Shown here one piece after another: positions 8,791 through 23,159 of a stretch of 64,000 nt of DNA. The notes under the pieces were generated by a model. That model ran no database searches and was not told the DNA's origin. It worked only from the letters and a program-made list of their open reading frames with translations. The stretch is from NCBI RefSeq assembly GCF_014773545.1, contig NZ_SDDV01000009.1, positions 16,836-80,835 on the forward strand, given 5' to 3'. Positions within the stretch are counted from its first letter, which is position 1, and every line of letters starts with the position of its first letter. This stretch comes from Hydrogenophaga sp. (GTDB taxonomy: Bacteria; Pseudomonadota; Gammaproteobacteria; Burkholderiales; Burkholderiaceae_C). A program made the position numbers and the translations under genes.

Positions 8791-9342
8791 CTAGGGCTGC
8801 GGGTAACGCACCGCCAGCAGTTCGAGCTCCTGCGCGCCGTCCGGCAGCAGCAGACGCACCACGTCACCCGCCCGCGCCTTGAGCAGCGCGCGCGCCACCG
8901 GTGCAACCCAACTGATCTGACCCTGCGCGCTGTCGGCTTCGTCCACGCCCAAAATGTGGATCGTGGTCTGCCGGCCCGCCGCATCGGCATAGGTCACGCA
9001 GGCGCCAAAAAACACCTGATCGCTGCCGTGGTGCCTGCAAGCGTCGACCACCTCGGCGATTTCGAGCCGCTGGCTCAGGTAGCGAATGCGTCGGTCGATT
9101 TCACGCAGACGCTTCTTGCCGTACAAGTAGTCGCCATTTTCAGAGCGGTCGCCGTTGCCGGCGGCCCAGTGGACGATCTCGACGATTTTTGGCCGTTCGA
9201 CGTCGAGCAGGGCGAACAACTCAGCGCGCAGACGCTCGTAGCCGGCCCGGCTGATGTAATTCTTGCCGCCCGGGATGTTCAGTTCGGGCGGCTGCTCGTC
9301 GGCATCGTCCGCCTCAGACTCGCGCGTAAAGGCCTTGCTCAT
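8791..9342 (-). CDS. greB: Transcription elongation factor GreB
   Basis: MSKAFTRESE...WAAGNGDRSENGDYLYGKKRLREIDRRIRYL...ISWVAPVARAL; start at CAT 9340-9342. Confidence 0.95.
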   Translation of the reverse strand: MSKAFTRESEADDADEQPPELNIPGGKNYISRAGYERLRAELFALLDVERPKIVEIVHWAAGNGDRSENGDYLYGKKRLREIDRRIRYLSQRLEIAEVVDACRHHGSDQVFFGACVTYADAAGRQTTIHILGVDEADSAQGQISWVAPVARALLKARAGDVVRLLLPDGAQELELLAVRYPQP

Positions 9343-9406: not shown

Positions 9407-10945
9407 TCAGGACGCGGACTTCCTTGCGCGGGCAAGCATTCTGCTGCCCAGGGCAGCGGCGACCCGTTCCAGCGCGCACACCAGATCGCCCGGTGGCAGC
9501 GCGGGTGCGCGCCAGCGCAGGCGCCGCGCCAGCAGCAGCAGCAAAACCGCCAGCCCGATTGGCCCCAACGCCAGCGCCAGCGTGCCCAGCTCCAGGTGAT
9601 GCGCCGCGCTGAGGACGGGCGCCACCCCCCACGGAGCCGCCCAACCAGCCAGCAGCAGCAACCCCCACGGGAGCGCCAGACCGGGTGGGGCCGCTGCGGC
9701 TGGCCGGGCCGCGACCAGCCACAACAGGCGCAGCATCAACACCCCGGTGCCGACGGCGGCCAGCGCCAGCAGCAGTGGCCACCAGGCCGCCATACCGCCC
9801 TCCCAGGGCAGCAGCGCGTCTTTGAGTTGCGCCTTGGCCAGCAAGCCGCTGGTCAGCGGTGCACCAGCCAGCGCCAGCGCCGGCAGCGCCAGCCCAGCCA
9901 GCACCCAGGCACGCGCGCCATGTGCCTGCGCCACGCCCAGGCCAAGAAACAAGGCGCTCTTGGCCAACGCATGGTGCAGGGCGTAAAAACAAAGCGCCGG
10001 CAACAACAGCGGCCACAAGGTCGGCGTATGCAGCCCGGCGCCCACCGCCAGCGCCATGAAGCCCATCTGGCTGATGCTGGAGTAAGCCAGCAGCACCTTG
10101 GGCTCGCGCTGCATCAAGCCGGCGGCGACGCCGAAAAACAGCGCCAGCACACCAGCCGATAGCAAGGCCGTGCCGATTTCGGGCAAGGCCACGTTGCCCA
10201 GCGGCAAAAAGCGCAGCCAACCCAGCAAGCCGGCCTTGAGGATGACGCCCGAGAGCAGCGCCGAGGCCGGCAGCGGCGCCACCGGATGCGCCAGCGGCAG
10301 CCACATGTGCAGCAGCGGCAGACCGACCTTGACCCCAAAGCCAAGCAACAACAGCACTACCGCCGTGGGCGCAGCAACCTGAGTCAGATCGGCCAGCAGC
10401 AAGGAATCGGCGGCGTATGCAGTCAGCCACATGCCGGCCACCAGCGCGCCTTCGGCCAGCAGTGCCATGACGATGTACACCCGCCCGGCGCGCCGGGCCT
10501 CGGCGCTGCCGCTGTGTACCACCAGCCCGTAGGCGGCAAACGTCATGAGCGCGAACAACAGGTAAAAACTGGCCAGGTCGGCAGCCAGGCAAAGCCCCAG
10601 GTTGGCGCCCTGGGTGGCCAGGAAAAAAAACCAGAAGCGATGCCGGCGCGCGTCAGCGCGCAGATAAGCCCGGGCATAGCAGCCCGCCAGCAGCCAGACC
10701 AGCGCGGAAAACCCCAGGAACAGCCGTCCGGTGGCGTCGAGTTGCAAGCGCGCACCCAGCAGCAGCCAGGGCAAATCCAGCGTCAGACCCACAGGGGCGC
10801 CCAGGACCAACAGCAGCGCCGGCAGCGGCGCCAGCAAAGCCAGCCGCTCGATCAGCGGACGACCCGCGCGCCAGCCCAGCAGTGGCAGCAGCAGCAGCGG
10901 CGCCAGCAGCGCCAGCGGCAGCAACCAGGGCGCCAGTGCATTCAT
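9407..10945 (-). CDS. Proton-conducting membrane transporter, MrpD/NuoL-like subunit (D3)
   Basis: Highly hydrophobic; KVGLPLLHMWLPLAHPVAP, ILKAG, LAYSSISQMG, HHALAKSALF; start MNALAPW overlaps the upstream stop (ATGA). Confidence 0.85.
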   Translation of the reverse strand: MNALAPWLLPLALLAPLLLLPLLGWRAGRPLIERLALLAPLPALLLVLGAPVGLTLDLPWLLLGARLQLDATGRLFLGFSALVWLLAGCYARAYLRADARRHRFWFFFLATQGANLGLCLAADLASFYLLFALMTFAAYGLVVHSGSAEARRAGRVYIVMALLAEGALVAGMWLTAYAADSLLLADLTQVAAPTAVVLLLLGFGVKVGLPLLHMWLPLAHPVAPLPASALLSGVILKAGLLGWLRFLPLGNVALPEIGTALLSAGVLALFFGVAAGLMQREPKVLLAYSSISQMGFMALAVGAGLHTPTLWPLLLPALCFYALHHALAKSALFLGLGVAQAHGARAWVLAGLALPALALAGAPLTSGLLAKAQLKDALLPWEGGMAAWWPLLLALAAVGTGVLMLRLLWLVAARPAAAAPPGLALPWGLLLLAGWAAPWGVAPVLSAAHHLELGTLALALGPIGLAVLLLLLARRLRWRAPALPPGDLVCALERVAAALGSRMLARARKSAS

Positions 10946-12444
10946 GGCAAATAAGCGCGCGCGGCGATCGAACGCGCCCACTCGAGCGGGCTGACGCTGC
11001 TGCCCGCCAGCAGCCCGAGCGCCAACACGGCGGCGGCGGTAAACAGCGGTGGCAGCAGCAACAAGCCGGAAGTCTCCCAGGCGCCGCGCCGCGCCAGGTT
11101 CTCGTGCCGCCAGGGCCCGGCCGGCGGGTTGAACCAGATGCGCTGCAAAATGGGCAAAAAGTAAGCAGCGTTGAGCAAGCTGGAGAGCACCAACACCGCC
11201 AGCACCCAGGGCATGCCGGCTGCCAGTGCGCCCTGGCCCAGGTACCACTTGCTGATGAAGCCGGCCGTCGGCGCGACGGCGATCATGCCGAAGGCCGCCA
11301 CGCTGAAGGCCGCGCTGGTCCAGGGCATGCGGCGGCCAACGCCGTCGAGTTCGCTGACCCGATGCAGTCCGAGCGTCTCGGCGTAGTTGCCCGCGCAAAA
11401 AAAGAGCGTGATTTTCATGACGCCCTGATGCACCAGGTGCACCAGGGCGCCGATGGTGCCCAGCGGGCCCAGCAGCGCGGTGCCGAGCGCGATGTACGAC
11501 ACCTGGCTAACGGTCGAATAAGCCAGGCGCTTTTTCAGATCGTCTTGCTGCAGCGCGCGCAGCGAGCCCCAGACGATGGTGGCGCAGGCCAGCAAAACCA
11601 GCGGCAGCAGCAGGCCAAGCGCATGCGCGAACTCGACGCCGTAGACCTCATAGACGATGCGCACGATGCCGAAGGCGCCGGCCTTGACCACCGCCACCGC
11701 GTGCAGCAGCGCCGACACCGGCGCCGGCGCCACCATGGCTTGCGGCAACCAGCCGTGCAGCGGCACCAGCGCCGCCTTCACGCCGACCCCGGCAATCAAC
11801 AGCACGAAAATGATTTGCAATTCAAGCGTGTGCTGCGGCGCCAGTGGCGCCAGCACGCCACCGGCGCTGAACTCGGGCTGGCCGACCAGGCTGTGCAGCC
11901 AGACGATGCCGCCCAGCAACAGCGCGCCGCCGGCCAGCGTGTAGGCCAGGTAAATGCTGCCACCGCGCAGCGCTGCCGGACTGCCGCGGTGCAACACCAG
12001 CGGCAGCGTAGCGAGCGTCAGCAGCTCGTAGAAAATGAAAAAGGTGAACAAATTGCCGGCCATGGCAATACCGACCGTGGCGGTCACGCACAGGCTGAAA
12101 AACCCAAAAAAACGGCTGCGCTGCGGCGAGGTTTCCAAGTAACCGATGGCGTACAGCGTGGTGCACAGCCACAGCAGCGCCGACAGGGTGACGAACAGCA
12201 GCGCCAGCGGGTCGGCATTGAACACCAGTTCGATGCCGGGCAGCATCGCAAAGCTGAATTCGTAGCTCTGCCCGGCCTGCACGCCGCGCAGCAGCACGCC
12301 CACCAGCACCAGCTTGGCCAGGGCGCCGAACAGGTTGAGCGCGCTGCGCAGTTTGACGCTGTGTTCGGGCAATAGAAAAATCAGCAGCCCCGGCAGCAGC
12401 GAAGAAGCCAGCAAGGCCAGCGGCAGCGCTTCGTTCAGGCTCAT
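10942..12444 (-). CDS. Monovalent cation/H+ antiporter subunit D family (D2; MrpA-like His in TM8)
   Basis: FYELLTL, KAALVPLHGWLPQAM, ALLHAVAVVKAG, LAYSTVSQVSY, GFISKW; start MSLNEAL. Confidence 0.88.
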   Translation of the reverse strand: MSLNEALPLALLASSLLPGLLIFLLPEHSVKLRSALNLFGALAKLVLVGVLLRGVQAGQSYEFSFAMLPGIELVFNADPLALLFVTLSALLWLCTTLYAIGYLETSPQRSRFFGFFSLCVTATVGIAMAGNLFTFFIFYELLTLATLPLVLHRGSPAALRGGSIYLAYTLAGGALLLGGIVWLHSLVGQPEFSAGGVLAPLAPQHTLELQIIFVLLIAGVGVKAALVPLHGWLPQAMVAPAPVSALLHAVAVVKAGAFGIVRIVYEVYGVEFAHALGLLLPLVLLACATIVWGSLRALQQDDLKKRLAYSTVSQVSYIALGTALLGPLGTIGALVHLVHQGVMKITLFFCAGNYAETLGLHRVSELDGVGRRMPWTSAAFSVAAFGMIAVAPTAGFISKWYLGQGALAAGMPWVLAVLVLSSLLNAAYFLPILQRIWFNPPAGPWRHENLARRGAWETSGLLLLPPLFTAAAVLALGLLAGSSVSPLEWARSIAARAYLP

Positions 12445-13895
12445 GCCAGCCCCAGCGACAGCAGGCGCCCCAGCGCAACGCCAAAAAAACCCAGCAGCAC
12501 GCTGGCGGCGGCCAGCCCGAAGGCGACCCATTCCAGGCTGCGCGGCACGGCGTGGCGCCGAATCGGTTGCGGCGCCAGTTGAAAAGCCGGACGCAGCACC
12601 CGATACACATAAGCCGCCGTCAGCAAGCTCGCGCCAAGCAGCAGCGGCACCCAGCCCCACTGGCCCTGGGTCAGCGCGGCGTCGATCAGCAGCCACTTGG
12701 CGAGAAAGCCGCCCGAAGGGGGCAGGCCGCACAGCGTCAGGCCCGCCAGTGCAAAGGCAAACAGCGTCAGCGGCTGCGTCTGCGCCGTGCCACGCAAACC
12801 CGCCACCAGGGGCTGTCCGGTCGCCAGCAGCAGCACGCCGGCGGCGGCGAACATGGCGGCCTTGGCCAAACCGTGCGCCAGCGCTTGCAACACGCCGGCC
12901 TGCACGGCCACGCCGTCGGCGGCCAGCAAGGGGAAGATCAAAAACAAATAGCCCAGTTGCGCCACAGTGGAATACGCCACCAGCAGCTTGAGTTCAGGCG
13001 CGCGCAGCGCCTGCCAGCCACCCCAGAGCACGGCAGCCGCGCCCAACAGCCCGAGCGCCAGCGCGGCCACCTCGGCCAGCGGCGCGAACACGCCCAGCGC
13101 GAGCCGCAGCACGAGGTAAAAACCGGCTTTAACCACCAGCGCCGACAGCAGCGCCGACACCGGTGCGGCGGCGCTGGCGTGCGCTGCGGGGAGCCAGAAA
13201 TGAAACGGCAACAGCGCGGTCTTGGCCAGCAGTGCCAGCAACATCAACGCCGCCGCCGCCCACGCCGCCAGCGGCACGTGCGCGCGCAGCAAGGGCGTCA
13301 GGGAGGCGATGTCTACGCTGCCGTAGACGCCGTAGAGCAAGGCCACGCCGAGCAAATAACAGCCCGAGGCGGCCAGACTGACCAGCAGGTAACGCAGCGC
13401 CGCTTGCAGCCGCGCTGCGCCGCCGCCGGCGGCCACCAGCGCCACGGCCGCCAGGCTCAAGAGTTCGAGCGTGACGTAGATATTGAACAAATCGGCCGAC
13501 AGCAGCAGGCTGTTCATGCCGGCGAGCAAAAAACCGCTCAGCGGCCAGAACCAGGCCGCTGCCGCGCCCTGCCCCGGCAGACGGAAATAGGCGCGCGCGT
13601 ACAGCGCCAGCGGCCAGGCGACGGCCTGCGTCAGCAGCAGCATGAGCACGCTCAGGCCGTCGGCCAGCAGGTCTATGCCCAGCGGCGCGCCCCAGCCGCC
13701 GACGGCGTGCGTGCGCGGCCCCTCAGTCAGCAGTTGTGCGGCCAGCAGCAGCGCCAGCGCCAGTTGCACGCCCAGGCAGGCGATCGCCAGCCGCGCGCCA
13801 CGCCCCGGGCCGAGCACGAAGGCCAGCGTGGCCCAGGCCAGCGGCAGCACGATCAGCCAGGGCAGCGGATCGAGCAAGGAATCAAGTGCAGTCAT
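12441..13895 (-). CDS. mrpD: Monovalent cation/H+ antiporter subunit D (D1)
   Basis: DLFNIYVTLELLS, KTALLPFHFWLP, VVKAG, AYSTVAQLGY, GLPPSGGFLAKW; follows mrpC. Confidence 0.88.
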   Translation of the reverse strand: MTALDSLLDPLPWLIVLPLAWATLAFVLGPGRGARLAIACLGVQLALALLLAAQLLTEGPRTHAVGGWGAPLGIDLLADGLSVLMLLLTQAVAWPLALYARAYFRLPGQGAAAAWFWPLSGFLLAGMNSLLLSADLFNIYVTLELLSLAAVALVAAGGGAARLQAALRYLLVSLAASGCYLLGVALLYGVYGSVDIASLTPLLRAHVPLAAWAAAALMLLALLAKTALLPFHFWLPAAHASAAAPVSALLSALVVKAGFYLVLRLALGVFAPLAEVAALALGLLGAAAVLWGGWQALRAPELKLLVAYSTVAQLGYLFLIFPLLAADGVAVQAGVLQALAHGLAKAAMFAAAGVLLLATGQPLVAGLRGTAQTQPLTLFAFALAGLTLCGLPPSGGFLAKWLLIDAALTQGQWGWVPLLLGASLLTAAYVYRVLRPAFQLAPQPIRRHAVPRSLEWVAFGLAAASVLLGFFGVALGRLLSLGLA

Positions 13896-14196
13896 GCTGC
13901 TGCTCGGGCGCGCGTTCGGCCGGCGCCGCCGCAGCCTCCTGCAGACGGCGCAGCAGCGCCAGCGCCAGCGCGGTGGCCGCCACCGTCACCACGATGCCGG
14001 TCAACACCATGGCCTGCGGCAGCGGGTCGGCCCCGCCAGCGCGTTGCGCCAGCCCGACAAACACCAAAAAAGCTCCGCTGCCCATGATGTTGAAGGCCAG
14101 AATTTTGCGCAGCGGCTGCGCCAGCAGCAGCATGGCGCCCAGGCCGAGCACGAACAGCGCGACCCCGGCCAGGGCGTAGAGCAACCCCGTGCTCAT
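13882..14196 (-). CDS. mrpC: Monovalent cation/H+ antiporter subunit C
   Basis: 104 aa, three TM segments, LRKILAFNIMGSG...ADPLPQAMVLTGIVV. Confidence 0.9.
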   Translation of the reverse strand: MSTGLLYALAGVALFVLGLGAMLLLAQPLRKILAFNIMGSGAFLVFVGLAQRAGGADPLPQAMVLTGIVVTVAATALALALLRRLQEAAAAPAERAPEQQHDCT

Positions 14197-15101
14197 GGCA
14201 GGCCGCGCTGCTGCGCCAGCAGCAGGTACAAGCCGGCCAGCAGCAAGCCGAGCGAGAGCGTCAGACCGGCCTCGATCAGCAGGATCAGCGCACCGGCCCA
14301 GGCCGGCGGGTAAAGCAACAGCGCGCCTTGGCTCAGCAAGAGCGCGGCCAGCAGCAAAAACAACCCAAAACCCGCCGCCAGACCCAGGCGCAGCAGGCGG
14401 CTGGGCTCACCCCAGGCTGGCAGCAGCCCGGCCAGATGCAGCAGCACAGCGGCCGCACCCAGCACGGCAGCGGCCTGAAAAGCGCCGCCGGGCTGGTGTG
14501 CGCCGGCCCACAGCATGTAGCCGGCCACCAGAATCATGAGCGGGGTCAGCAGCCGCGCCAGCGTTTGCAGCAGGGGATCGGCGCTGGCCGGTGCGGGCAG
14601 CGCCTGCGGGTGCCGGCCCAGCGCCAGCAGGCCGAGCAAGGCCACCAGCAACACCGCCACTTCGAGCAAGGTGTCGTAAGCCCGAAAGTTCAGCAGCACC
14701 GCCGTCACCGGGTGCGTCACGCCGCTGCTGGCCATCTGCGCCTCCAGCAGCGGGGCCACGCGCTGGCTGGCCAGCGGCGCCTGCAACACCGCCAGCAGCA
14801 GCCCGGCGCCCAGCGCTGCAAGGCCAGTCAGCAGCAGCCAGCGCACGGCACGCCGCTGCGGCAACGGGGTGGTCGCTGGCACGCCCAAGGCGTCGAGCAG
14901 CAGGGCGCCGGTCAGGCCGGCGCCGATGGCAGCCTCGGCCAGCGCCAGGTCGGGCGCGTCCAGCCGCACCCAGGCCAGCGTCATCAGCAGGCCAAAGACG
15001 ATGAACAGCACCACCGCGCGCACCAGCTCGGGCGCTGCCAGCGCGCGCCAGGCGCTCCACAGCAGCGCGGCGACCAGCAGGGTATCGAACGCCAGGCTCA
15101 T
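14193..15101 (-). CDS. mrpB: Fused MrpA C-terminal (DUF4040-like) and MrpB domain protein
   Basis: LDAPDLALAEAAIGAG, VTAVLLNFRAYDTLLE, HQPGGAFQAA motifs. Confidence 0.85.
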   Translation of the reverse strand: MSLAFDTLLVAALLWSAWRALAAPELVRAVVLFIVFGLLMTLAWVRLDAPDLALAEAAIGAGLTGALLLDALGVPATTPLPQRRAVRWLLLTGLAALGAGLLLAVLQAPLASQRVAPLLEAQMASSGVTHPVTAVLLNFRAYDTLLEVAVLLVALLGLLALGRHPQALPAPASADPLLQTLARLLTPLMILVAGYMLWAGAHQPGGAFQAAAVLGAAAVLLHLAGLLPAWGEPSRLLRLGLAAGFGLFLLLAALLLSQGALLLYPPAWAGALILLIEAGLTLSLGLLLAGLYLLLAQQRGLP

Positions 15102-15105
15102 GGCC

Positions 15106-17496
15106 TCAGCCGCCGGCGATGGCGGCGGGCCAACGCCAATCCCGAATCTGCGGCAAATCTTCTCCGTGGCGTTCGATGTACTCGCGGTGCTCGATCAGTT
15201 TGTCGCGCATCAATTGCCGGATGCGCGCGGCCTTGTAGCCCAGCGTGGGCACGCGGTCTATCACGTCGCACACCAGGTGGTAGCGGTCCAGGTCGTTGCG
15301 CACCGCCATGTCGAACGGCGTCGTGGTGCCGCCCTCCTCCTTGTAGCCGCGCACGTGCAGGTTGCCGTGGTTGCGCCGCCGGTAGCTCAGGCGGTGGATC
15401 AGCCAGGGGTAGCCGTGGTAGGCGAAGATGATGGGCTGTTTAGTGGTGAACAAGGTGTCGAAGTCGCGCTCCGACAGGCCGTGCGGGTGTTCTTCGCGCG
15501 GCTGCAAGCTCATCAGATCGACCACGTTGACGACGCGCACCTTGAGCGCGGGCAGGTGCTGGCGCAGCAGATCGACGGCGGCCAGCGTCTCCAGCGTCGG
15601 CACGTCGCCAGCGCAGGCCAGCACCACGTCGGGCTCGCCATCCACGTCGTTGCTGGCCCATTCGAAAATGCCGATGCCGACCGCGCAGTGCTTGATCGCG
15701 GCATCCATATCCAGCCACTGCGGCGCCGCTTGCTTGCCGGCCACGATGACGTTGACCAGGTTGCGCGAGCGCAGGCAGCGGTCGGTCACGCACAGCAGCG
15801 TGTTCGCGTCCGGCGGCAGATAGACCCGGATGACGTCGGCTTTCTTGTTCACCACGTGGTCGATGAAGCCGGGGTCCTGGTGCGAGAAGCCGTTGTGATC
15901 TTGGCGCCAGACGTGCGATGTCAGCAGATAGTTGAGCGAGGCGATCGGGCGGCGCCAGGGGACCTCTCTGCACACCTTGAGCCATTTGGCGTGCTGGTTG
16001 AACATCGAACTGACCAGGTGGATGAAGGCCTCGTAGCAAGAAAAAAAACCGTGCCGCCCGGTCAGCAAATAGCCTTCCAGCCAGCCCTGGCAGGTGTGCT
16101 CGGAGAGGATTTCCATCACGCGGCCATCGGCCGACAAGCCCTCGTCGTCGGGTTGGTACTCACCCAGCCAGGTGCGCCCCGTCACCTCGAACAAAGCATC
16201 CAGCCGGTTGGAGGCGGTTTCGTCCGGGCCGACGACGCGAAAATTACGCGCCGCCAGGTTGCACCGCATCACCTCGCGCAAATAGCCACCCAGCACGCGC
16301 GTGGCCTGTGCATCGCACGCGCCGGGCTGCGGTACGGCCACGGCCGAGGCGCGAAAATCCGGCAGCCGCAGCGCGCGCAGCAGCAGGCCGCCGTTGGCGT
16401 GCGGGTTGCTTCCCATGCGGCGCGTCCCTTGGGGCGCCAGGGCGGCTATTTCAGCCCGCGGCGCGCCCTGTGCATCAAACAATTCCTGCGGCCGGTAGCT
16501 CAGCAGCCAGTCTTGCAACTGCTGCAACTGGACCGGATCGTGCGCGGTGTTGGCCAGCGGCACCTGGTGCGAACGCCAACTGCCCTCGCTCGGCTTGCCG
16601 TCGACGTGCTTGGGGCCGGTCCAGCCCTTGGGGCTGCGCAGCACGATCATCGGCCAGCGCGGCCGCTGCAGCGGCGTGCTGCGGGCGCCAGCGCGTGCGG
16701 CGCGCTGAATGGCACGAATCTCGGCCAGCACCGCGTCGAGCGTGGCCGCCATCTGCGCGTGCATCGCCGCCGGCTCTGAACCTTCGACGAAATACGGCTG
16801 GTAGCCATAACCCTGCAACAGCGCCAGCAGCTCGGCGTGCGGGATGCGCGCCAGCAACGCCGGGTTGGCGATTTTGTAGCCGTTGAGGTGCAGGATAGGC
16901 AACACCGCGCCGTCGCTGGCGGGGTTGAGGAATTTATTCGAGTGCCAGGCAGCAGCCAGCGGCCCGGTCTCGGCCTCGCCGTCGCCAATGACGCAAGCAA
17001 CGATCAACTCCGGGTTGTCGAACGCCGCACCGAAGGCATGCGAGAGCGCATAACCGAGTTCACCGCCCTCGTGGATCGAGCCCGGCGTTTCGGCGCCGAC
17101 GTGGCTGCCCACTCCGCCGGGAAAAGAGAACTGCCGCAGCAACTCGCGCATGCCCTCGGCGTCGCGCCTCAGGTGGGGATAGATCTCGCCGCAACTGCCT
17201 TCGAGCCAGGTGTTGGCAAACAGCGCCGGGCCACCGTGGCCGGGGCCGGCAATGTAGAGCACGTCAAGGTCGAACCTGTTGATGACGCGGTTGAGGTGCG
17301 CGTAGATGAAGTTCAGCCCCGGCGTTGTACCCCAGTGGCCAAGCAGCCGCGGCTTGACGTGTGCGGCACTCAGTGGCTCGCGCAGCAGCGGGTTCTCGAG
17401 CAGGTAAATCTGTCCGACCGAGATGTAGTTGGCCGCGCGCCACCAGGCGTCTAGCCAATAGAGCTCGGTGCCGGACTCAGTGGCTGTAAGGGTCAT
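15106..17496 (-). CDS. xfp: Phosphoketolase (XFP family)
   Basis: [23 protein letters not shown], ThDP motif GDGEAETGP...[19 protein letters not shown]; 796 aa. Confidence 0.96.
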
Positions 17497-17962
17497 GGGG
17501 TGCTCCGTTGCCTGCCGCTGGCTGGGCTGGGTCGGTCTCGTCGTCGCCGCATTCGTCCGGGTGCAGCAGCGGCGGCTGGCCCGAACGTGCGCGCATCCAG
17601 TTCACGCCCGAGAGCGCGCGCGGGCGTTTGATCAGCCAGCGCTCCAGGGCGTATTTGCCCGGGTAGTTGGCGATCATCAGCCCGGCCAGCAGCGTCACCA
17701 GCCCCTGACCAGGGGTAAAGAGCGTGATCAGCCCGACCAGCACCAGCAAGCCGCCGATCAGGTTTCGCAGCAGCGCCAGCGCCAGCGCCAGCACGGGGTG
17801 GCGCTGGGGCACGGCACGGCGTCGGCGCGCACAGAAATAATCGACCGGCAGGCGCGAGAGCACCAGCGGCAGCAGCGCCAGCGCCGCCACCAGTCCCAGC
17901 ACCGAGAACGCCAGCGCCCAGGCTGCGTGCAGCGCCAACCAGTCGAGCCAGGCCGCCGTCAT
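17477..17962 (-). CDS. Small membrane protein, PGPGW-like family
   Basis: MTAAWLDW start overlapping the mrpG stop (ATGA); [41 protein letters not shown]. Confidence 0.7.
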
Positions 17963-18276
17963 GAGCGCGCAGACCCTTGCTGGGCGGGTTTGATGCCCAA
18001 CGCGTCGGCACGCCCGGCAATGGCGTAGCCCAGCATGGTGCTGGCCAGCAGCACCAGCGCCCAGATCAGCAACAGCTTGAGCACCAGACTCAGGTGCTCG
18101 GCCTGCAAGGCCAGCCCGAGCACGATGCAGCCCAGCCCCAGGTTGTCGGCCTTGGTCAGCGCGTGCAAGCGGGCGTAGACGTCCGGAAAGCGCAGCAGGC
18201 CGACGGTGCCGGCGAAATAAAAGCCTGCACCCAGCAGCAGCAAGGCGTGACTCAACCAGGTCAGCAGCTCGCTCAT
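17959..18276 (-). CDS. mrpG: Monovalent cation/H+ antiporter subunit G
   Basis: GTVGLLRFPDVYARLHALTKADNLG. Confidence 0.92.
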   Translation of the reverse strand: MSELLTWLSHALLLLGAGFYFAGTVGLLRFPDVYARLHALTKADNLGLGCIVLGLALQAEHLSLVLKLLLIWALVLLASTMLGYAIAGRADALGIKPAQQGSARS

Positions 18277-19373
18277 GGCTCGCTCCGCACACCGGGGTCA
18301 GCATGGGCGGCGGCCCATTCGCGCCACAGCGCCAGCAGCACGGCCAGAATCACCGGCCCGACGAACAGGCCGACCAGGCCGAAGGCGGCCAAGCCACCGA
18401 GCACGCCAAACAACACCAGCAGAAACGGGATGTTGGCCACGCCGCTGATGACCAGCGGGCGCACCAGGTTGTCGATCCAGCTCACCGCCAGCATGCCCCA
18501 CAGCAGCAGGCCGATGCCGGCGCCGATCTGGCCTTGCAGCAGCAGCCAGATGCCGATCGGACCCCAGATCAGCGGCGCACCAAACGGAATCAGCGCCACC
18601 AGCGCGGTGGTCGCACCCCAGAACGCCGGCGCCGTCACCCCGGCGGCCCAATAACCCAGACCGGCCATCACGCCTTGGGTGATGGCCGCCAGCAAAATGC
18701 CATAGACCACCGCCCGCGTGGTGTCTCCCACAGCGGCAAAATAGCTCTGCACGCGCTCGCCGAGCAGGCCGCGCAGGATGTTGCGCAACTGCTCGAGCAG
18801 GCGGTCGCCATCGCGAAAGAGAAAGAAGCAGGTCAGCAGCGAGACCACGAACAGCATCAGGTTGACGCCCAGGTCGCCAGCGACGCGCAGCGCCGAACCG
18901 GCCCATTGTTGGGCCAGCGTGCTGGCGTAACGGCCCCAGGCGGCCTGATCGGCGCCGATTTCGAGCACCAACTCCTGCAGCCAGGGGCCCAGCCAGGGCA
19001 GGCGCAAAACAGCCTCGGGCAGTTGCACGCCGCCTTCGAGCAGCGCGGCCAACTCGGTCAGCGCCAGCGTCAGCTCGCCGCGCAGCAGCAACACCATCCA
19101 CAGCAAGATGCCGCTGAGCAGCAGGGTCAGCAGCAGCGTCATGACGAATGCCGCCCAGGCCCGGTGGCCGCCCAGCCGCGCCTGCACCCGCAGCAGCAGC
19201 GGCCAGGTGACAAAGCTCAGGATCGCGGCCCAGGCCAGCGCGACCAGGAATGGCTGCATGACGACGAAGCCGACCAGCAACAGGCCGGCCAGCAAAGCGG
19301 CGATGACGGCACGGCGCAGCCACGGCGGGGTTGGCCCCTGGCCGCTGCGCAGGTCGGCTTCAGGCTCGGTCAT
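18273..19373 (-). CDS. AI-2E (UPF0118/PerM) family transporter
   Basis: LALIPFGAPLIWGP, IDNLVRPLVIS, VLFGVLGGLAAFGLVGLFVGPVILAV; start MTEPEAD. Confidence 0.9.
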   Translation of the reverse strand: MTEPEADLRSGQGPTPPWLRRAVIAALLAGLLLVGFVVMQPFLVALAWAAILSFVTWPLLLRVQARLGGHRAWAAFVMTLLLTLLLSGILLWMVLLLRGELTLALTELAALLEGGVQLPEAVLRLPWLGPWLQELVLEIGADQAAWGRYASTLAQQWAGSALRVAGDLGVNLMLFVVSLLTCFFLFRDGDRLLEQLRNILRGLLGERVQSYFAAVGDTTRAVVYGILLAAITQGVMAGLGYWAAGVTAPAFWGATTALVALIPFGAPLIWGPIGIWLLLQGQIGAGIGLLLWGMLAVSWIDNLVRPLVISGVANIPFLLVLFGVLGGLAAFGLVGLFVGPVILAVLLALWREWAAAHADPGVRSEP

Positions 19374-19647
19374 TGCGGCTCTCCCGGCCCCAGGCGCGCA
19401 GGGCGAAGGCCAGACCGGCAATGGCGGCCAGCAAGGCCAGCAGCAGCGCCACGTCCAGCAGCGCCGCCCGCACCGCTGCGGCGCCGTCGGCGTGCGCCAG
19501 CAGCAGCAGCGCACCGACGCCGGTGCTGCCAAACAGCAAGGCGGCCAACATGCGGTCGGCGGCGGTGGGTCCGCGTGCCGCGCGCACCAGGGCCAGCAAC
19601 AGATTGCACAGCAAAAACAGCGCCAGCGCGCCTTCCAGGTGGTTCAT
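19360..19647 (-). CDS. mrpF: Monovalent cation/H+ antiporter subunit F
   Basis: MNHLEGALA...RAARGPTAADRMLAA...LLDVALLLALL; 95 aa. Confidence 0.88.
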   Translation of the reverse strand: MNHLEGALALFLLCNLLLALVRAARGPTAADRMLAALLFGSTGVGALLLLAHADGAAAVRAALLDVALLLALLAAIAGLAFALRAWGRESRNDRA

Positions 19648-20141
19648 GTCGATGATCTCCAAATGCGCGCGACCGCCGCCTCGGCGGCGCGCATCTCTTC
19701 GCGGACGGCCAGACGCCGATCGAGCGCGTGCAAGCGCAGCGTGTCGCCCAGGACGCGCACGCTCAGGGTGCCGGGCAGCAGGCTCAGGGTGCAAAGCAGC
19801 AGCACGCGCGCGGCGCCGGGCGCGAGCGTCAGGGGCAGATCGAGCAGGGCCGGCTCGATGTCCAGGCGCGGGCGCAGCGCCAGCGCAGCGACCTGCAGAC
19901 CGCCCTGGATCGAGTGGCGCAGAAAGAAGCCGGCAAAAGCCAGGCAACCGAGCAACGAGAGCGGCTTCGAAGCGGGCGGCAACAGGTGCAGACTGGCCAG
20001 CAGCGCCAAGGCCACGCTGGCCGCGCCCACGCCCCAGGCATAGGTGCGGCCATCGGTCAGGGTCCACCACAGGGCGGCCAACAGCAGGCCGCGCCCCAGC
20101 GTGGCGAGCAGCCAATCGGTTGCAGCGACGCGCCGTTTCAT
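19644..20141 (-). CDS. mrpE: Monovalent cation/H+ antiporter subunit E
   Basis: LRPRLDIEPALL...SLLPGTLSV...LHALD. Confidence 0.88.
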   Translation of the reverse strand: MKRRVAATDWLLATLGRGLLLAALWWTLTDGRTYAWGVGAASVALALLASLHLLPPASKPLSLLGCLAFAGFFLRHSIQGGLQVAALALRPRLDIEPALLDLPLTLAPGAARVLLLCTLSLLPGTLSVRVLGDTLRLHALDRRLAVREEMRAAEAAVARIWRSST

Positions 20142-20150
20142 GTGCTGGCC

Positions 20151-23030
20151 TCAACCGGTGTTGCGCAGACCAGCCGCGATGCCGTTGATCGAGAGATGGA
20201 TGCCGCGCTTGACCTTGTCGTCGCGGTCACTCGGGTGCAGACCGGCGCGAAAACGCCGCACCAGCTCGACTTGCAGGTGGTGCAGCGGATCGATGTAGGG
20301 GAAGCGGTGCTGCATCGAGCGTTGCAGCGCGGCGTTGTTGGCCAGCCGCTGCGCCTGGCCGGTGATCAGCGTGAGCGCGTCGGCGCTGCGCTGCCATTCG
20401 GCTTCGATGGCGCCAAACACGCGCTGGCGCAGCGCCAGGTCGGGCACCAGCTCGGCGTAGCGCGAGGCCAGCGCCAGGTCGCTCTTGGCCAGCACCATGT
20501 CGATGTTGGACAGCAGGGTGCTGAAAAACGGCCATTGCTGCAGCATCGCCTGCAACAGCGCGTGTTGCTGCGCTGCGCCGCCGGGGCCGTGCTGCTGCAC
20601 AAACGCCTGCACCGCAGAACCAAAGCCGTACCAGCCCGGCAACGTCAGGCGGCACTGGCCCCAACTGAAACCCCAGGGAATGGCGCGCAGGTCTTCGATT
20701 CTCTGCGTTGCCCTGCGCGAGGCCGGGCGCGAGCCGATGTTGAGCTCGGCGATCTCACGGATCGGCGTGGCGGCAAAAAAGTAGTCGGCAAAACCAGGTG
20801 TCTCGTACACCAGCGCGCGGTAGGCCGCCATGCTGCGGCGCGAGAGCTCGGCCGCCGCCGCCACGAACTCAGGCGGCGCACTGCGCGTGGTTTGCAGCAG
20901 CGTGGCCTCCAGCGTGGCGGCGACCAGGGTTTCCAGGTTGCGCTGCCCGATCTCGGGGTTGGCGTATTTGGAGCCGATCACCTCGCCCTGCTCGGTCAGG
21001 CGAATCTGGCCGCGCACCGTGCCCGGCGGCTGGGCCAGAATCGCCTGGTAGCTCGGCCCGCCGCCGCGCCCGACGGTGCCGCCGCGGCCGTGGAACAGCC
21101 GCAGTTGAATCGGTCTGGCCTGGGCTTGGTTGATTTCGTCAAACACCGCCACCAGCGCGATTTCAGCCTGATACAAGGCCCAGTTGCTGGTAAAAATGCC
21201 GCCGTCCTTGTTGCTGTCGGAGTAGCCGAGCATGATTTCTTGCTCACCGTAGCCGTCGGCGGCGCCGCGCTGCACCAGCTCGCGCACGCCGGGCAGGGCA
21301 AAATAATCGCGCATGATGGTGGCCGACTGCGCCAGGTCTTCGATGGTCTCGAACAAGGGCACCACGATCAGCTCGCAGACGGCGTTGGGCGGGCCGGCAC
21401 TCAGCAGGCCGCGCAGCAGACCGGTTTCTTTTTGCAGCAACAGCACTTCGAGCAAATCGCTGACCGCTTCGGTATGGCTGATGATGGCGTGGCGAATCGC
21501 CGCTGCGCCCAGGCGCTCGCGCCCCTGGCGTGCCGCCTCGAAGATCGCCAACTCGCTGTGCGTGTGGGCCGAATAGGCCGCGCCCGGCACGCGCAGCGGC
21601 CGCACGTCGTTCAACTGGCGCAGCAGCACGGCGCGCTTGCCGGCCTCGCCCTGCGCGCTGTAAGCGGGCTCGACGCGCGCCGCAGCCAGCAATTCGGCCA
21701 CCACTGCCTCGTGCTGCTCGGAACTCTGGCGCAGGTCCAGCGTGGCCAGATGAAAGCCAAACACATCGACCGACCGCAGCAGCGCTTGCAGCCGCACGCG
21801 CACCAGCGCCGCGCCGTGGTGGGCCAGCAAAGAGTCTTCTATGGTGCGCAAATCGGCCAAAAATTCGCTTGCGCTGGCGTAGGGGTCTTGCGGCGCCAGC
21901 GCGTGGCGCATCGCATCGGTGCCGCTGAGCTTTTTCAGCGTGGCGGCCAGGCGCGCATAAATGCCGGTCAGCGCACGCCGGTACGGCTCGTCCTGACGGT
22001 GCGCGTTGCGGTCGGGCGAGCGCTCGGCCAGCGCTTGCATGGCCGCACTGACCGGAACCAGCACGGCCGACATCGATAGCTCGCCACCCAGCAGATGCAC
22101 CTGCGTCAGGTGCTGGCGCAACACCAGCTCGGCCTGGCGTTGCAGCGCCAGCTCCAGCGTCTGCGCCGTCACGTTCGGGTTGCCGTCGCGGTCGCCGCCA
22201 ATCCACTGGCCCATGCGCAAAAAACTGGCAACCGGCGCCGGCGGCGCGCCCGGCGCCGACAGCCCTTGCTCCAACTCGCGATAAAGCTGCGGCAGTTGCG
22301 GCAGGAAGGTGCTTTCGTAATAGCCCAGCGCGTTTTCAATTTCGTCGGACACACTCAGCTTGGTAAAGCGCAGCAGCCGGGTCTGCCACAACTGCGTCAC
22401 GCGCGCGCGCATCTGCGCCTCGATGTCGGCCTGCTCGCGCGGGGGCAACTGGTCGCGGTGCTCGCGCTGGCTCAGCAAGCGCGCCAGCGCGCGTTCGGCG
22501 TCCAGAATGCTTTTGCGCTGCACTTCGGTCGGATGCGCAGTCAGCACCGGCGAAATGTGGCACTTCGCCAGCGCGCGCCGCACCTGGTCGGACGTGATAC
22601 CGGCGTCTTGCAGGCGTTGCAGCGTCAGCGCCAGACTGCCTTGCTGCAACTTGCCGGCGCGCTCGTGCACCGCGCGGCGGCGCACGTGGTGGCGGTCTTC
22701 GGCCAGATTGGCCAGGTGGCTAAAGAAAGTGAAGGCGCGGATTACGCTCACCGCCTGCTCGCTGGGCAAGCCTTCGAGCAGGCTTTTCAGCGCCAGATCG
22801 GCCGCCGGGTCGGCGTGGCGACGAAACGAGACCGAGAGCTGGCGGATTTGCTCGATCAGATCGAACACCGCCTGCCCTTCTTGCTCGCGAATCACGTCAC
22901 CCAGCAAACGCCCGAGCAGACGGATGTCGTCGATCAAGGGTTGATCCTTGCCGTTGCGGGCCTGGGGCCTGGCCACAGGCTCGATCCAGTCGGCGAGGGC
23001 GGCAGCGGGCTGGGCGGTGCTCAGACTCAT
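20151..23030 (-). CDS. ppc: Phosphoenolpyruvate carboxylase
   Basis: [50 protein letters not shown]-terminal LRNTG. Confidence 0.97.
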
Positions 23031-23159
23031 GCGGGACTTGCGCAGCGGGAGCGCGAAAATGTTTTGACAGGGCCCATGCTAGCATCCAAAGCCGCCTCAA
23101 CGGCAAGCTGCGGCGTAACCACACCGCCTTGGCCGTGAACATTTTTTTTTCGACCCACC

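Follow-up and report, generated by a model that had tools for sequence, protein, structure and literature searches.

The twelve co-directional minus-strand genes at positions 9407-23030 of a 64,000-nucleotide stretch of Hydrogenophaga sp. DNA (assembly GCF_014773545.1, contig NZ_SDDV01000009.1, positions 16,836 to 80,835; hereafter the window) are built, judging by their content and order, around a group 3 Mrp antiporter cluster, and a gene for phosphoketolase (xfp) is packed between its antiporter genes. We favour, with a confidence only somewhat above even, the view that this is a stress-type group 3 Mrp operon that recruited phosphoketolase as an energy or acetyl-phosphate enzyme, and not a module for bicarbonate fixation. 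The group 3 type of Mrp is itself already known; what is new is its association with phosphoketolase, which is statistically supported but loose. Indeed, in a survey anchored on mrpB (85 independent loci, mostly metagenome contigs), four loci carry xfp inside or beside a group 3 Mrp cluster. These four genes lie within 805 kb of sequence around the anchors, where 0.05-0.27 would be expected (P from 3e-7 to 2e-4).

Gene content and order of the Mrp core

The string holds three Proton_antipo_M genes of 484-512 amino acids, which are its only antiporter subunits and are of the MrpD type, together with the small subunits MrpB, MrpC, MrpE, MrpF and MrpG (Table 1). No full-length mrpA is present in the cluster. 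Since the lack of mrpA, the multiple mrpD genes and the order E-F-G-B-C-D fit the published definition, the core (mrpE-F-G, a fused mrpA'/B, mrpC and three mrpD-like genes) is assigned to group 3 on its gene content. The original prediction took canonical mrp operons to be ordered ABCDEFG, a premise that does not hold here, as the arrangement EFG-B-C-D is a known group 3 type (PMC8415708, PMC5703873).

At the level of individual subunits, MnhB, Oxidored_q2, MNHE and PhaG_MnhG score above their Pfam cut-offs. MrpF alone among the small subunits falls below its own, and its protein is 70-76% identical to homologues called MrpF. MrpE is 57-64% identical to the MrpE proteins of loci L112 and L198. 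The mrpA'/B product carries the domains MbhD, MbhE and MnhB and is therefore a fusion of the MrpA C-terminus with MrpB; it aligns to positions ~600-885 of MrpA models, and more than 5000 homologues of it were found. None of the three mrpD-like products (D1, D2 and D3) carries the MrpA C-terminal domains. The best PDB matches of D1 are 6cfw_H (MbhH) and the MrpD chains 7qru_D and 6z16_D. The most divergent of the three, D3, is 66-68% identical to the D3 proteins of loci L198 and L202. NCBIfam concurs for phosphoketolase and MrpG, and the remaining Mrp subunits stay below its equivalog cut-offs, which points to a divergent Mrp.

Several other assignments were set aside. A group 1 or group 2 Mrp (mrpABCDEFG or mrpA'CDEFG) is ruled out by the split MrpA domains and by the order EFG-B-C-D. 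A respiratory complex of the Mbh, Mbx or complex I type was rejected because none of the twelve genes matches NuoH-like or NuoB/C/D/I-like families in Pfam, and an inorganic-carbon pump linked to DAB or Mrp because the cluster has no Pfam match to DabA (DUF2309), which leaves ppc as the sole gene that could tie the string to inorganic carbon. Finally, docking of phosphoketolase on Mrp as a peripheral arm was dismissed, as there is no NuoH-like anchor and the enzyme is of standard length and domain make-up, without additional segments.

Two characterized systems come close to the window cluster. The stand-alone group 3 Mrp of Pyrococcus furiosus (order mrpEFGBB'CD, PF1147-53; PMC8415708) shares with it the order E-F-G-B...C-D, the lack of a full-length mrpA, antiporter subunits solely of the MrpD type and the lack of a redox module. 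Unlike the archaeal cluster, which has one mrpD, the window has three mrpD-like genes, its B' (MbhD/E) and B (MnhB) parts are fused, its operon is interrupted by three foreign genes (for an AI-2E/UPF0118-family transporter, a small PGPGW-motif membrane protein and phosphoketolase), and its host is a bacterium. The second is the group 3 Mrp of Aphanothece halophytica, mrpCD1D2EFGAB, a Na+/H+ antiporter that gives salt tolerance (Fukaya et al. 2009, as related in PMC5703873). From that account, it likewise has several copies of mrpD, its MrpA- and MrpB-type genes are short, and the window order EFG-AB-C-D1-D2-D3 is a cyclic permutation of its own; the same account gives the A. halophytica operon, unlike that of the window, another start gene, separate A and B genes and no embedded metabolic enzyme.

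The order E-F-G-B-C-D1-D2(-D3) is kept in every one of the 85 independent loci that is long enough to judge, in a comparison that took in 80 metagenome loci and nine assembly loci. Within the genus, this type of Mrp occurs in one other species only (G016). The cluster of that species has neither xfp nor the AI-2E gene, stands behind a P-type cation ATPase and lies on a contig other than that of ppc, the gene for phosphoenolpyruvate carboxylase that opens the string in the window. The genome studied here has a further, canonical Mrp cluster outside the window, at ~22.9-27.6 kb of its contig C3, with an MrpA of 768 amino acids (Proton_antipo_N and Proton_antipo_M, MbhD, MbhE), an MrpC-like gene and an MrpD of 484 amino acids. 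The window cluster is a second, accessory Mrp beside the canonical one, and the two systems belong to different groups.

Phosphoketolase in and beside group 3 Mrp clusters

The xfp gene of the window encodes a complete enzyme. Its three domains (XFP_N, XFP and XFP_C) score 568, 291 and 316 bits, the NCBIfam model NF003619 gives 1446 against a cut-off of 962, and the translation shows the motifs GPGHG, EGGELGY and GDGEAETG. A nearly identical sister genome has the gene at 97% identity (P0144). The closest relatives beyond it, in L201 (81.5% identity) and L213 (86%), are both linked to Mrp genes, and the closest named homologues come from metagenome-assembled genomes (MAGs) labelled Rubrivivax sp. 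The gene is patchily distributed, being found in 2 of 36 other species of the genus, 15 of 61 relatives and 35 of 401 genomes of the family. Its tree mixes phyla and requires at least two to three separate recruitments to Mrp.

The loci that join xfp to Mrp differ in where they place it. In L201, where MrpB is 71% identical to that of the window, the order is xfp-[508-amino-acid protein with multiple transmembrane segments]-B-C-D1-D2. The multi-pass protein between xfp and mrpB (L201:1675-3201) has no Pfam match and may be an uncharacterised transporter. The Sulfuritalea MAG locus L114 reads E-F-G-B-C-[P-type ATPase]-[Fre-like]-xfp-[Na/Pi symporter]-D, and L150 reads [P-type ATPase]-ackA-E-Usp-F-G-B-C-D1-D2-D3-xfp-[phosphorylase], Usp being a universal stress protein and ackA the acetate kinase gene. 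The genes of L150 are found again in L136, with the xfp/ackA block divergent from mrpE. Besides these four loci, the 'Rubrivivax sp.' MAG locus L213 has a more divergent Mrp-like cluster in the order D-D-D-Usp-Na/Ca exchanger-P-type ATPase-xfp. Across the loci, the frequent neighbours of xfp are acetate kinase, a glycogen-phosphorylase-like gene, a P-type cation ATPase and Usp.

The original prediction had proposed a synteny search for xfp and AI-2E genes within mrp clusters. For xfp this search gave a positive answer (4 of 85 loci, plus L213). The ppc gene was found in none of the approximately 90 homologous Mrp loci. The exact twelve-gene arrangement appears to be confined to this genome or to a lineage that is its immediate sister. 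Judged by titles and abstracts, a full-text literature search returned no paper on a link between phosphoketolase and the Mrp antiporter.

Packing and boundaries of the string

The description of twelve minus-strand genes from ppc to D3, tightly coupled and with no internal terminator seen, was borne out: the listing of open reading frames (ORFs) and the mapping of start codons reproduce the order exactly, Pfam identities agree, and all 11 junctions are overlaps or gaps of at most 9 nt (Table 1). A scan found no canonical terminator at any of these junctions, and such a scan is uninformative in a high-GC region of membrane-protein genes. The terminator-like matches in the string are weak hairpins within T-rich membrane-protein coding sequence. 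The strongest of them (window 13539-13561, minus strand; 8 pairs, of which 7 G-C) lies inside the D1 coding sequence, with a T-run that begins 5 nt past the stem. It is probably mere coding sequence, or, less likely, an attenuator.

The string starts divergently from hemC. The 129-nt region between hemC and ppc is likely to contain its promoter since no other non-coding stretch upstream exceeds 9 nt; a consensus scan for a sigma-70 promoter gave no match there, the scan being as uninformative as that for terminators in this high-GC context. Over the whole window, the palindrome TTGATNNNNATCAA has 32 matches with at most 2 mismatches (6.6 expected from shuffles), none of which is near the start of the cluster. 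At the other end, greB is co-directional and lies 64 nt beyond D3 with no terminator found between; greB may be read through from the string, whose end is not necessarily D3. The GC content of third codon positions (GC3) is uniform across the string (0.81-0.88), which suggests that the inserted genes were not recently acquired from a donor with another base composition. The genome is small (2.2 Mb in 19 contigs) and 99.98% complete.

Table 1. Genes and flanking features of the Mrp-phosphoketolase string, in the order of transcription (window positions; aa, amino acids)
Feature	Description	Position	Strand	Family match	Junction with next gene
hemC-ppc intergenic region	divergent, 129 nt	23031..23159	.		
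ppc	phosphoenolpyruvate carboxylase (959 aa)	20151..23030	-	PF00311 PEPcase, E=0, full length	9-nt gap
mrpE	Mrp subunit (165 aa)	19644..20141	-	PF01899 MNHE, 74 bits	4-nt ATGA overlap
mrpF	Mrp subunit (95 aa)	19360..19647	-	PF04066, 19.9 bits, below gathering score	14-nt overlap
AI-2E	AI-2E/UPF0118-family transporter (366 aa), between mrpF and mrpG	18273..19373	-	PF01594, 136 bits	4-nt ATGA overlap
mrpG	Mrp subunit (105 aa)	17959..18276	-	PF03334 (PhaG_MnhG), 88 bits; TIGR01300, 68.8 vs cut-off 63.1	4-nt ATGA overlap
PGPGW	PGPGW-motif small membrane protein (161 aa), between mrpG and mrpB	17477..17962	-	PF09656, 25.8 bits vs cut-off 23.3 (marginal)	20-nt overlap
xfp	phosphoketolase (796 aa), between PGPGW and mrpB	15106..17496	-	XFP_N, XFP, XFP_C, full length	4-nt gap
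mrpA'/B	Mrp subunit (302 aa)	14193..15101	-	MbhD + MbhE + MnhB (Pfam)	4-nt ATGA overlap
mrpC	Mrp subunit (104 aa)	13882..14196	-	PF00420 Oxidored_q2	14-nt overlap
D1	mrpD-like (484 aa)	12441..13895	-	PF00361 Proton_antipo_M	4-nt ATGA overlap
D2	mrpD-like (500 aa)	10942..12444	-	PF00361 + PF00662 (Proton_antipo_N segment); best PDB match 6cfw_H	4-nt ATGA overlap
D3	mrpD-like (512 aa)	9407..10945	-	PF00361, 110 bits; best PDB match 6cfw_H	
greB	outside the module	8791..9342	-	GreA_GreB_N + GreA_GreB	

The ppc gene as a housekeeping neighbour

The original prediction counted ppc as a member of the module and drew from it a link to bicarbonate fixation, the potentially most striking part of the proposal. 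Neither claim survives comparison with relatives. Complete matches of 72-80% identity to ppc occur across the genus (with one second copy at 67%), and on sequence comparison the gene belongs to the vertically inherited core. In three relatives (G035, G002 and G023), ppc stands in the conserved order hemC<>ppc-PHP-EamA-Sua5, with the gene for tryptophanyl-tRNA synthetase (TrpRS) next in two of them. The present genome still has PHP-EamA-Sua5-TrpRS as an unbroken block, but on another contig (C14:67997-72451; compared with L209, L210 and L212), which marks the ppc|mrpE junction as a derived breakpoint placed exactly at the 3' end of ppc. We therefore read this junction as a local rearrangement and ppc as a housekeeping neighbour outside the module. 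As the pairing is derived and unconserved, the bicarbonate link rests on an accident of gene order. In the same vein, no carbonic anhydrase, DabA or bicarbonate transporter was found by Pfam in the cluster. The greB gene was considered as an ancestral neighbour of ppc and rejected, since the two genes are well apart in those members of the genus for which both could be located.

Other genes embedded in group 3 Mrp clusters

The AI-2E gene product meets the cut-off of its family (PF01594, 136 against 34), and falls below that of the YdiK equivalog model (127 against 305). No other Mrp locus of about 90 contains such a gene, and its insertion is, from this comparison, specific to the lineage of the window; the idea of AI-2E genes as a recurring feature of mrp clusters is not supported. 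A role of the protein in ion transport is plausible by analogy, since Na+(Li+)/H+ antiport has been proven for one UPF0118 protein (PMC5379678, PMC7221264). The PGPGW protein has homologues of 61-64% identity in the same position, G-PGPGW-B, in L112, L204 and L205 (Methylotenera-type clusters), and more distant homologues stand alone. On these comparisons it is an accessory of one Mrp sub-lineage.

Insertions of other kinds were met in the surveyed clusters. A tandem Usp gene (~326 amino acids) lies between mrpE and mrpF in ten listed metagenome loci (L127, L131, L134/L135, L136, L150, L154, L164, L187 and L188), which reduce to nine, L134/L135 being one sequence present twice. This insert spans a whole sub-lineage of group 3 Mrp clusters, and several of the loci come from one metagenome project. 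A Na+/Ca2+ exchanger gene (Na_Ca_ex) is found between D1 and D2 of another group 3 cluster (L176:6533-7630). A type II P-type cation ATPase (Cation_ATPase_N/C) recurs both within 10 kb of xfp and beside group 3 Mrp clusters; the loci concerned are L217, L218, L222, L232, L026 and L028, and L213, L150, L136, L114, L116 and L211. The other genes embedded in group 3 Mrp clusters are likewise ion or stress genes.

Acetyl-phosphate metabolism in the genome

Acetate kinase (PF00871) has no match in this nearly complete genome, under conditions in which control genomes match, and tblastn with two AckA queries was negative as well. The genome encodes a fusion of a MaoC dehydratase with a PTA_PTB domain (488-amino-acid ORF, contig C1:294612-296078). 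Two other PTA_PTB domains stand in ORFs of ~780-820 amino acids, which are probably malic enzymes, and the MaoC-PTA fusion is, on domain content, the sole plausible phosphate acetyltransferase of the genome. No homologue of the tandem Usp gene of the other loci was found in it.

Discussion

The sequence of events that we favour starts from a group 3 Mrp operon that would have acquired, in this lineage, three passengers (the AI-2E/UPF0118 transporter, the small PGPGW protein and phosphoketolase) and that a rearrangement would have set directly behind the housekeeping gene ppc. The Mrp complex is expected to exchange Na+ (or K+) for H+ across the membrane, and phosphoketolase might be co-expressed under the same stress, be it salt, alkaline pH or loss of respiration. 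From sugar phosphates and phosphate, the enzyme would make acetyl-phosphate. In carriers with acetate kinase, this could yield ATP without respiration for cation pumps and for upkeep of the proton gradient. In the present genome, acetyl-phosphate could be converted to acetyl-CoA by the MaoC-PTA fusion or serve as a phosphoryl donor, fates that are the more likely here because acetate kinase is missing and the fusion is present.

A precedent for the energetic side of this scheme is the route formed by phosphoketolase and acetate kinase (XPK-ACK), which yields ATP in cyanobacteria under dark, anoxic and osmotic stress (PMC10365998). Like the enzyme of the Synechococcus elongatus route, the phosphoketolase of the window is full length, and the occurrence of xfp with ackA near ion transporters in L150, L136 and L214 fits an ATP supply under stress. 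Unlike that route, the window genome has no ackA, and its xfp would be translationally coupled to antiporter subunits, as judged by overlap and spacing. More generally, the recurring neighbours (ackA, the phosphorylase, the P-type cation ATPase and Usp) fit a non-respiratory supply of ATP or acetyl-phosphate to ion homeostasis.

A number of observations weigh against a recruitment of phosphoketolase by a stress-type Mrp operon. L198 and L202, the plain clusters most closely related to that of the window, are free of insertions and lack xfp. Since L136 and L150 belong to related lineages, the linked loci amount to only ~3-5 independent events. Seen from the Mrp cluster, xfp recurs; seen from xfp, the linkage is rare. 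Indeed, none of the 80 closest xfp loci of species-representative genomes has Mrp, ppc or AI-2E as a neighbour (one of them has weak NuoN-like matches nearby). An Mrp cluster is likewise missing near xfp in all 31 loci taken from family- and order-level genomes, where ackA is the usual neighbour (13 of 31). Because this genome lacks ackA, the argument from ATP yield does not apply to it directly. As for regulation, a consensus scan recognised no promoter for the string, no FNR/Anr-type box occurs between window positions 15213 and 26174, and the mrp operon is likely to be read through from the ppc promoter, as judged solely from the 9-nt spacing. Cation/proton antiport is predicted from membership in group 3. 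We infer the ion specificity, as well as co-transcription, co-expression of xfp, the inducing stress and the metabolic coupling, from gene order and family membership.

The most serious rival is that the string is a pure mosaic, in which rearrangement and compaction have brought together AI-2E, PGPGW, xfp and ppc as passengers with no functional relation, so that the tight junctions would mirror the gene density of a small 2.2 Mb genome and not a shared function. We hold this to be possible but rather unlikely. The genome is indeed small and rearranged, with the ppc-PHP synteny broken and greB relocated, the AI-2E insertion is unique among Mrp loci, and both the plain state of L198 and L202 and the location of most xfp genes away from Mrp are what unrelated passengers would give. 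However, a mosaic sits uneasily with the statistically enriched recurrence of xfp in or beside group 3 Mrp clusters, with the Mrp linkage of both closest relatives of the window xfp, and with the common theme of the neighbours (ackA, P-type cation ATPase, Usp, Na/Ca exchanger and Na/Pi symporter).

An island for persistence at low oxygen is improbable. In that case, the genes would be part of a regulon for hypoxia or dormancy rather than of a response to salt or alkaline pH, like those of the lxa locus of Burkholderia cenocepacia, where a cation-transporting ATPase is combined with Usp proteins, acetate kinase and a phosphate acetyl/butyryl transferase (PMC3721108). In the related loci L213, L150, L136 and L214, though not in the window itself, xfp and Mrp have neighbours of these kinds, and 6 of the 31 family- and order-level loci have a P-type ATPase at most 10 kb from xfp. 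The comparison with this Burkholderiales island is weakened by the lack of an Anr-type box in the scanned part of the window, by the lack of a tandem Usp homologue and of ackA in the genome, and by the lxa paper itself, the text of which lists neither phosphoketolase nor Mrp.

Very improbable, finally, is the original prediction of a single selected module made up of ppc, Mrp, AI-2E and xfp, in which cation/H+ exchange would be coupled both to the fixation of bicarbonate and to the production of acid or acetyl-phosphate, for high-pH or carbon-limited growth: the ppc-mrpE gap without terminator makes read-through likely and making acid is a well-established answer to alkaline stress, but ppc keeps other downstream neighbours in three relatives and is foreign to the related Mrp loci, the G016 cluster lies apart from ppc and has no xfp, and the window cluster has no gene for handling bicarbonate among those searched. 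What stands of a co-regulated module is the gene content, the tight coupling and the association with xfp; the ppc, AI-2E and bicarbonate parts fall away.

Beyond the recruitment of phosphoketolase in this one operon, we advance only tentatively a recurrent module of group 3 Mrp and the phosphoketolase route, under common regulation, that would power ion homeostasis by substrate-level phosphorylation. If so, its partners would depend on the lineage (acetate kinase, a glycogen-phosphorylase-like enzyme, a type II P-type cation ATPase or Usp), and the module would sustain the Na+/H+ balance and membrane energisation at respiratory failure or ion stress. Where xfp sits within the antiporter operon itself (here, in L201 and in L114), co-expression would then be hard-wired.

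Mrp antiporters are seen as self-contained membrane machines, and phosphoketolase as an enzyme of carbon metabolism that is paired with acetate kinase. A repeated and independent link between the two would suggest an unrecognised coupling of a non-respiratory supply of ATP or acetyl-phosphate to ion homeostasis. Such a coupling would concern uncultured environmental Proteobacteria, often together with P-type cation ATPases and universal stress proteins, and it would supply a concrete hypothesis for the physiological role of the poorly known group 3 Mrp complexes.

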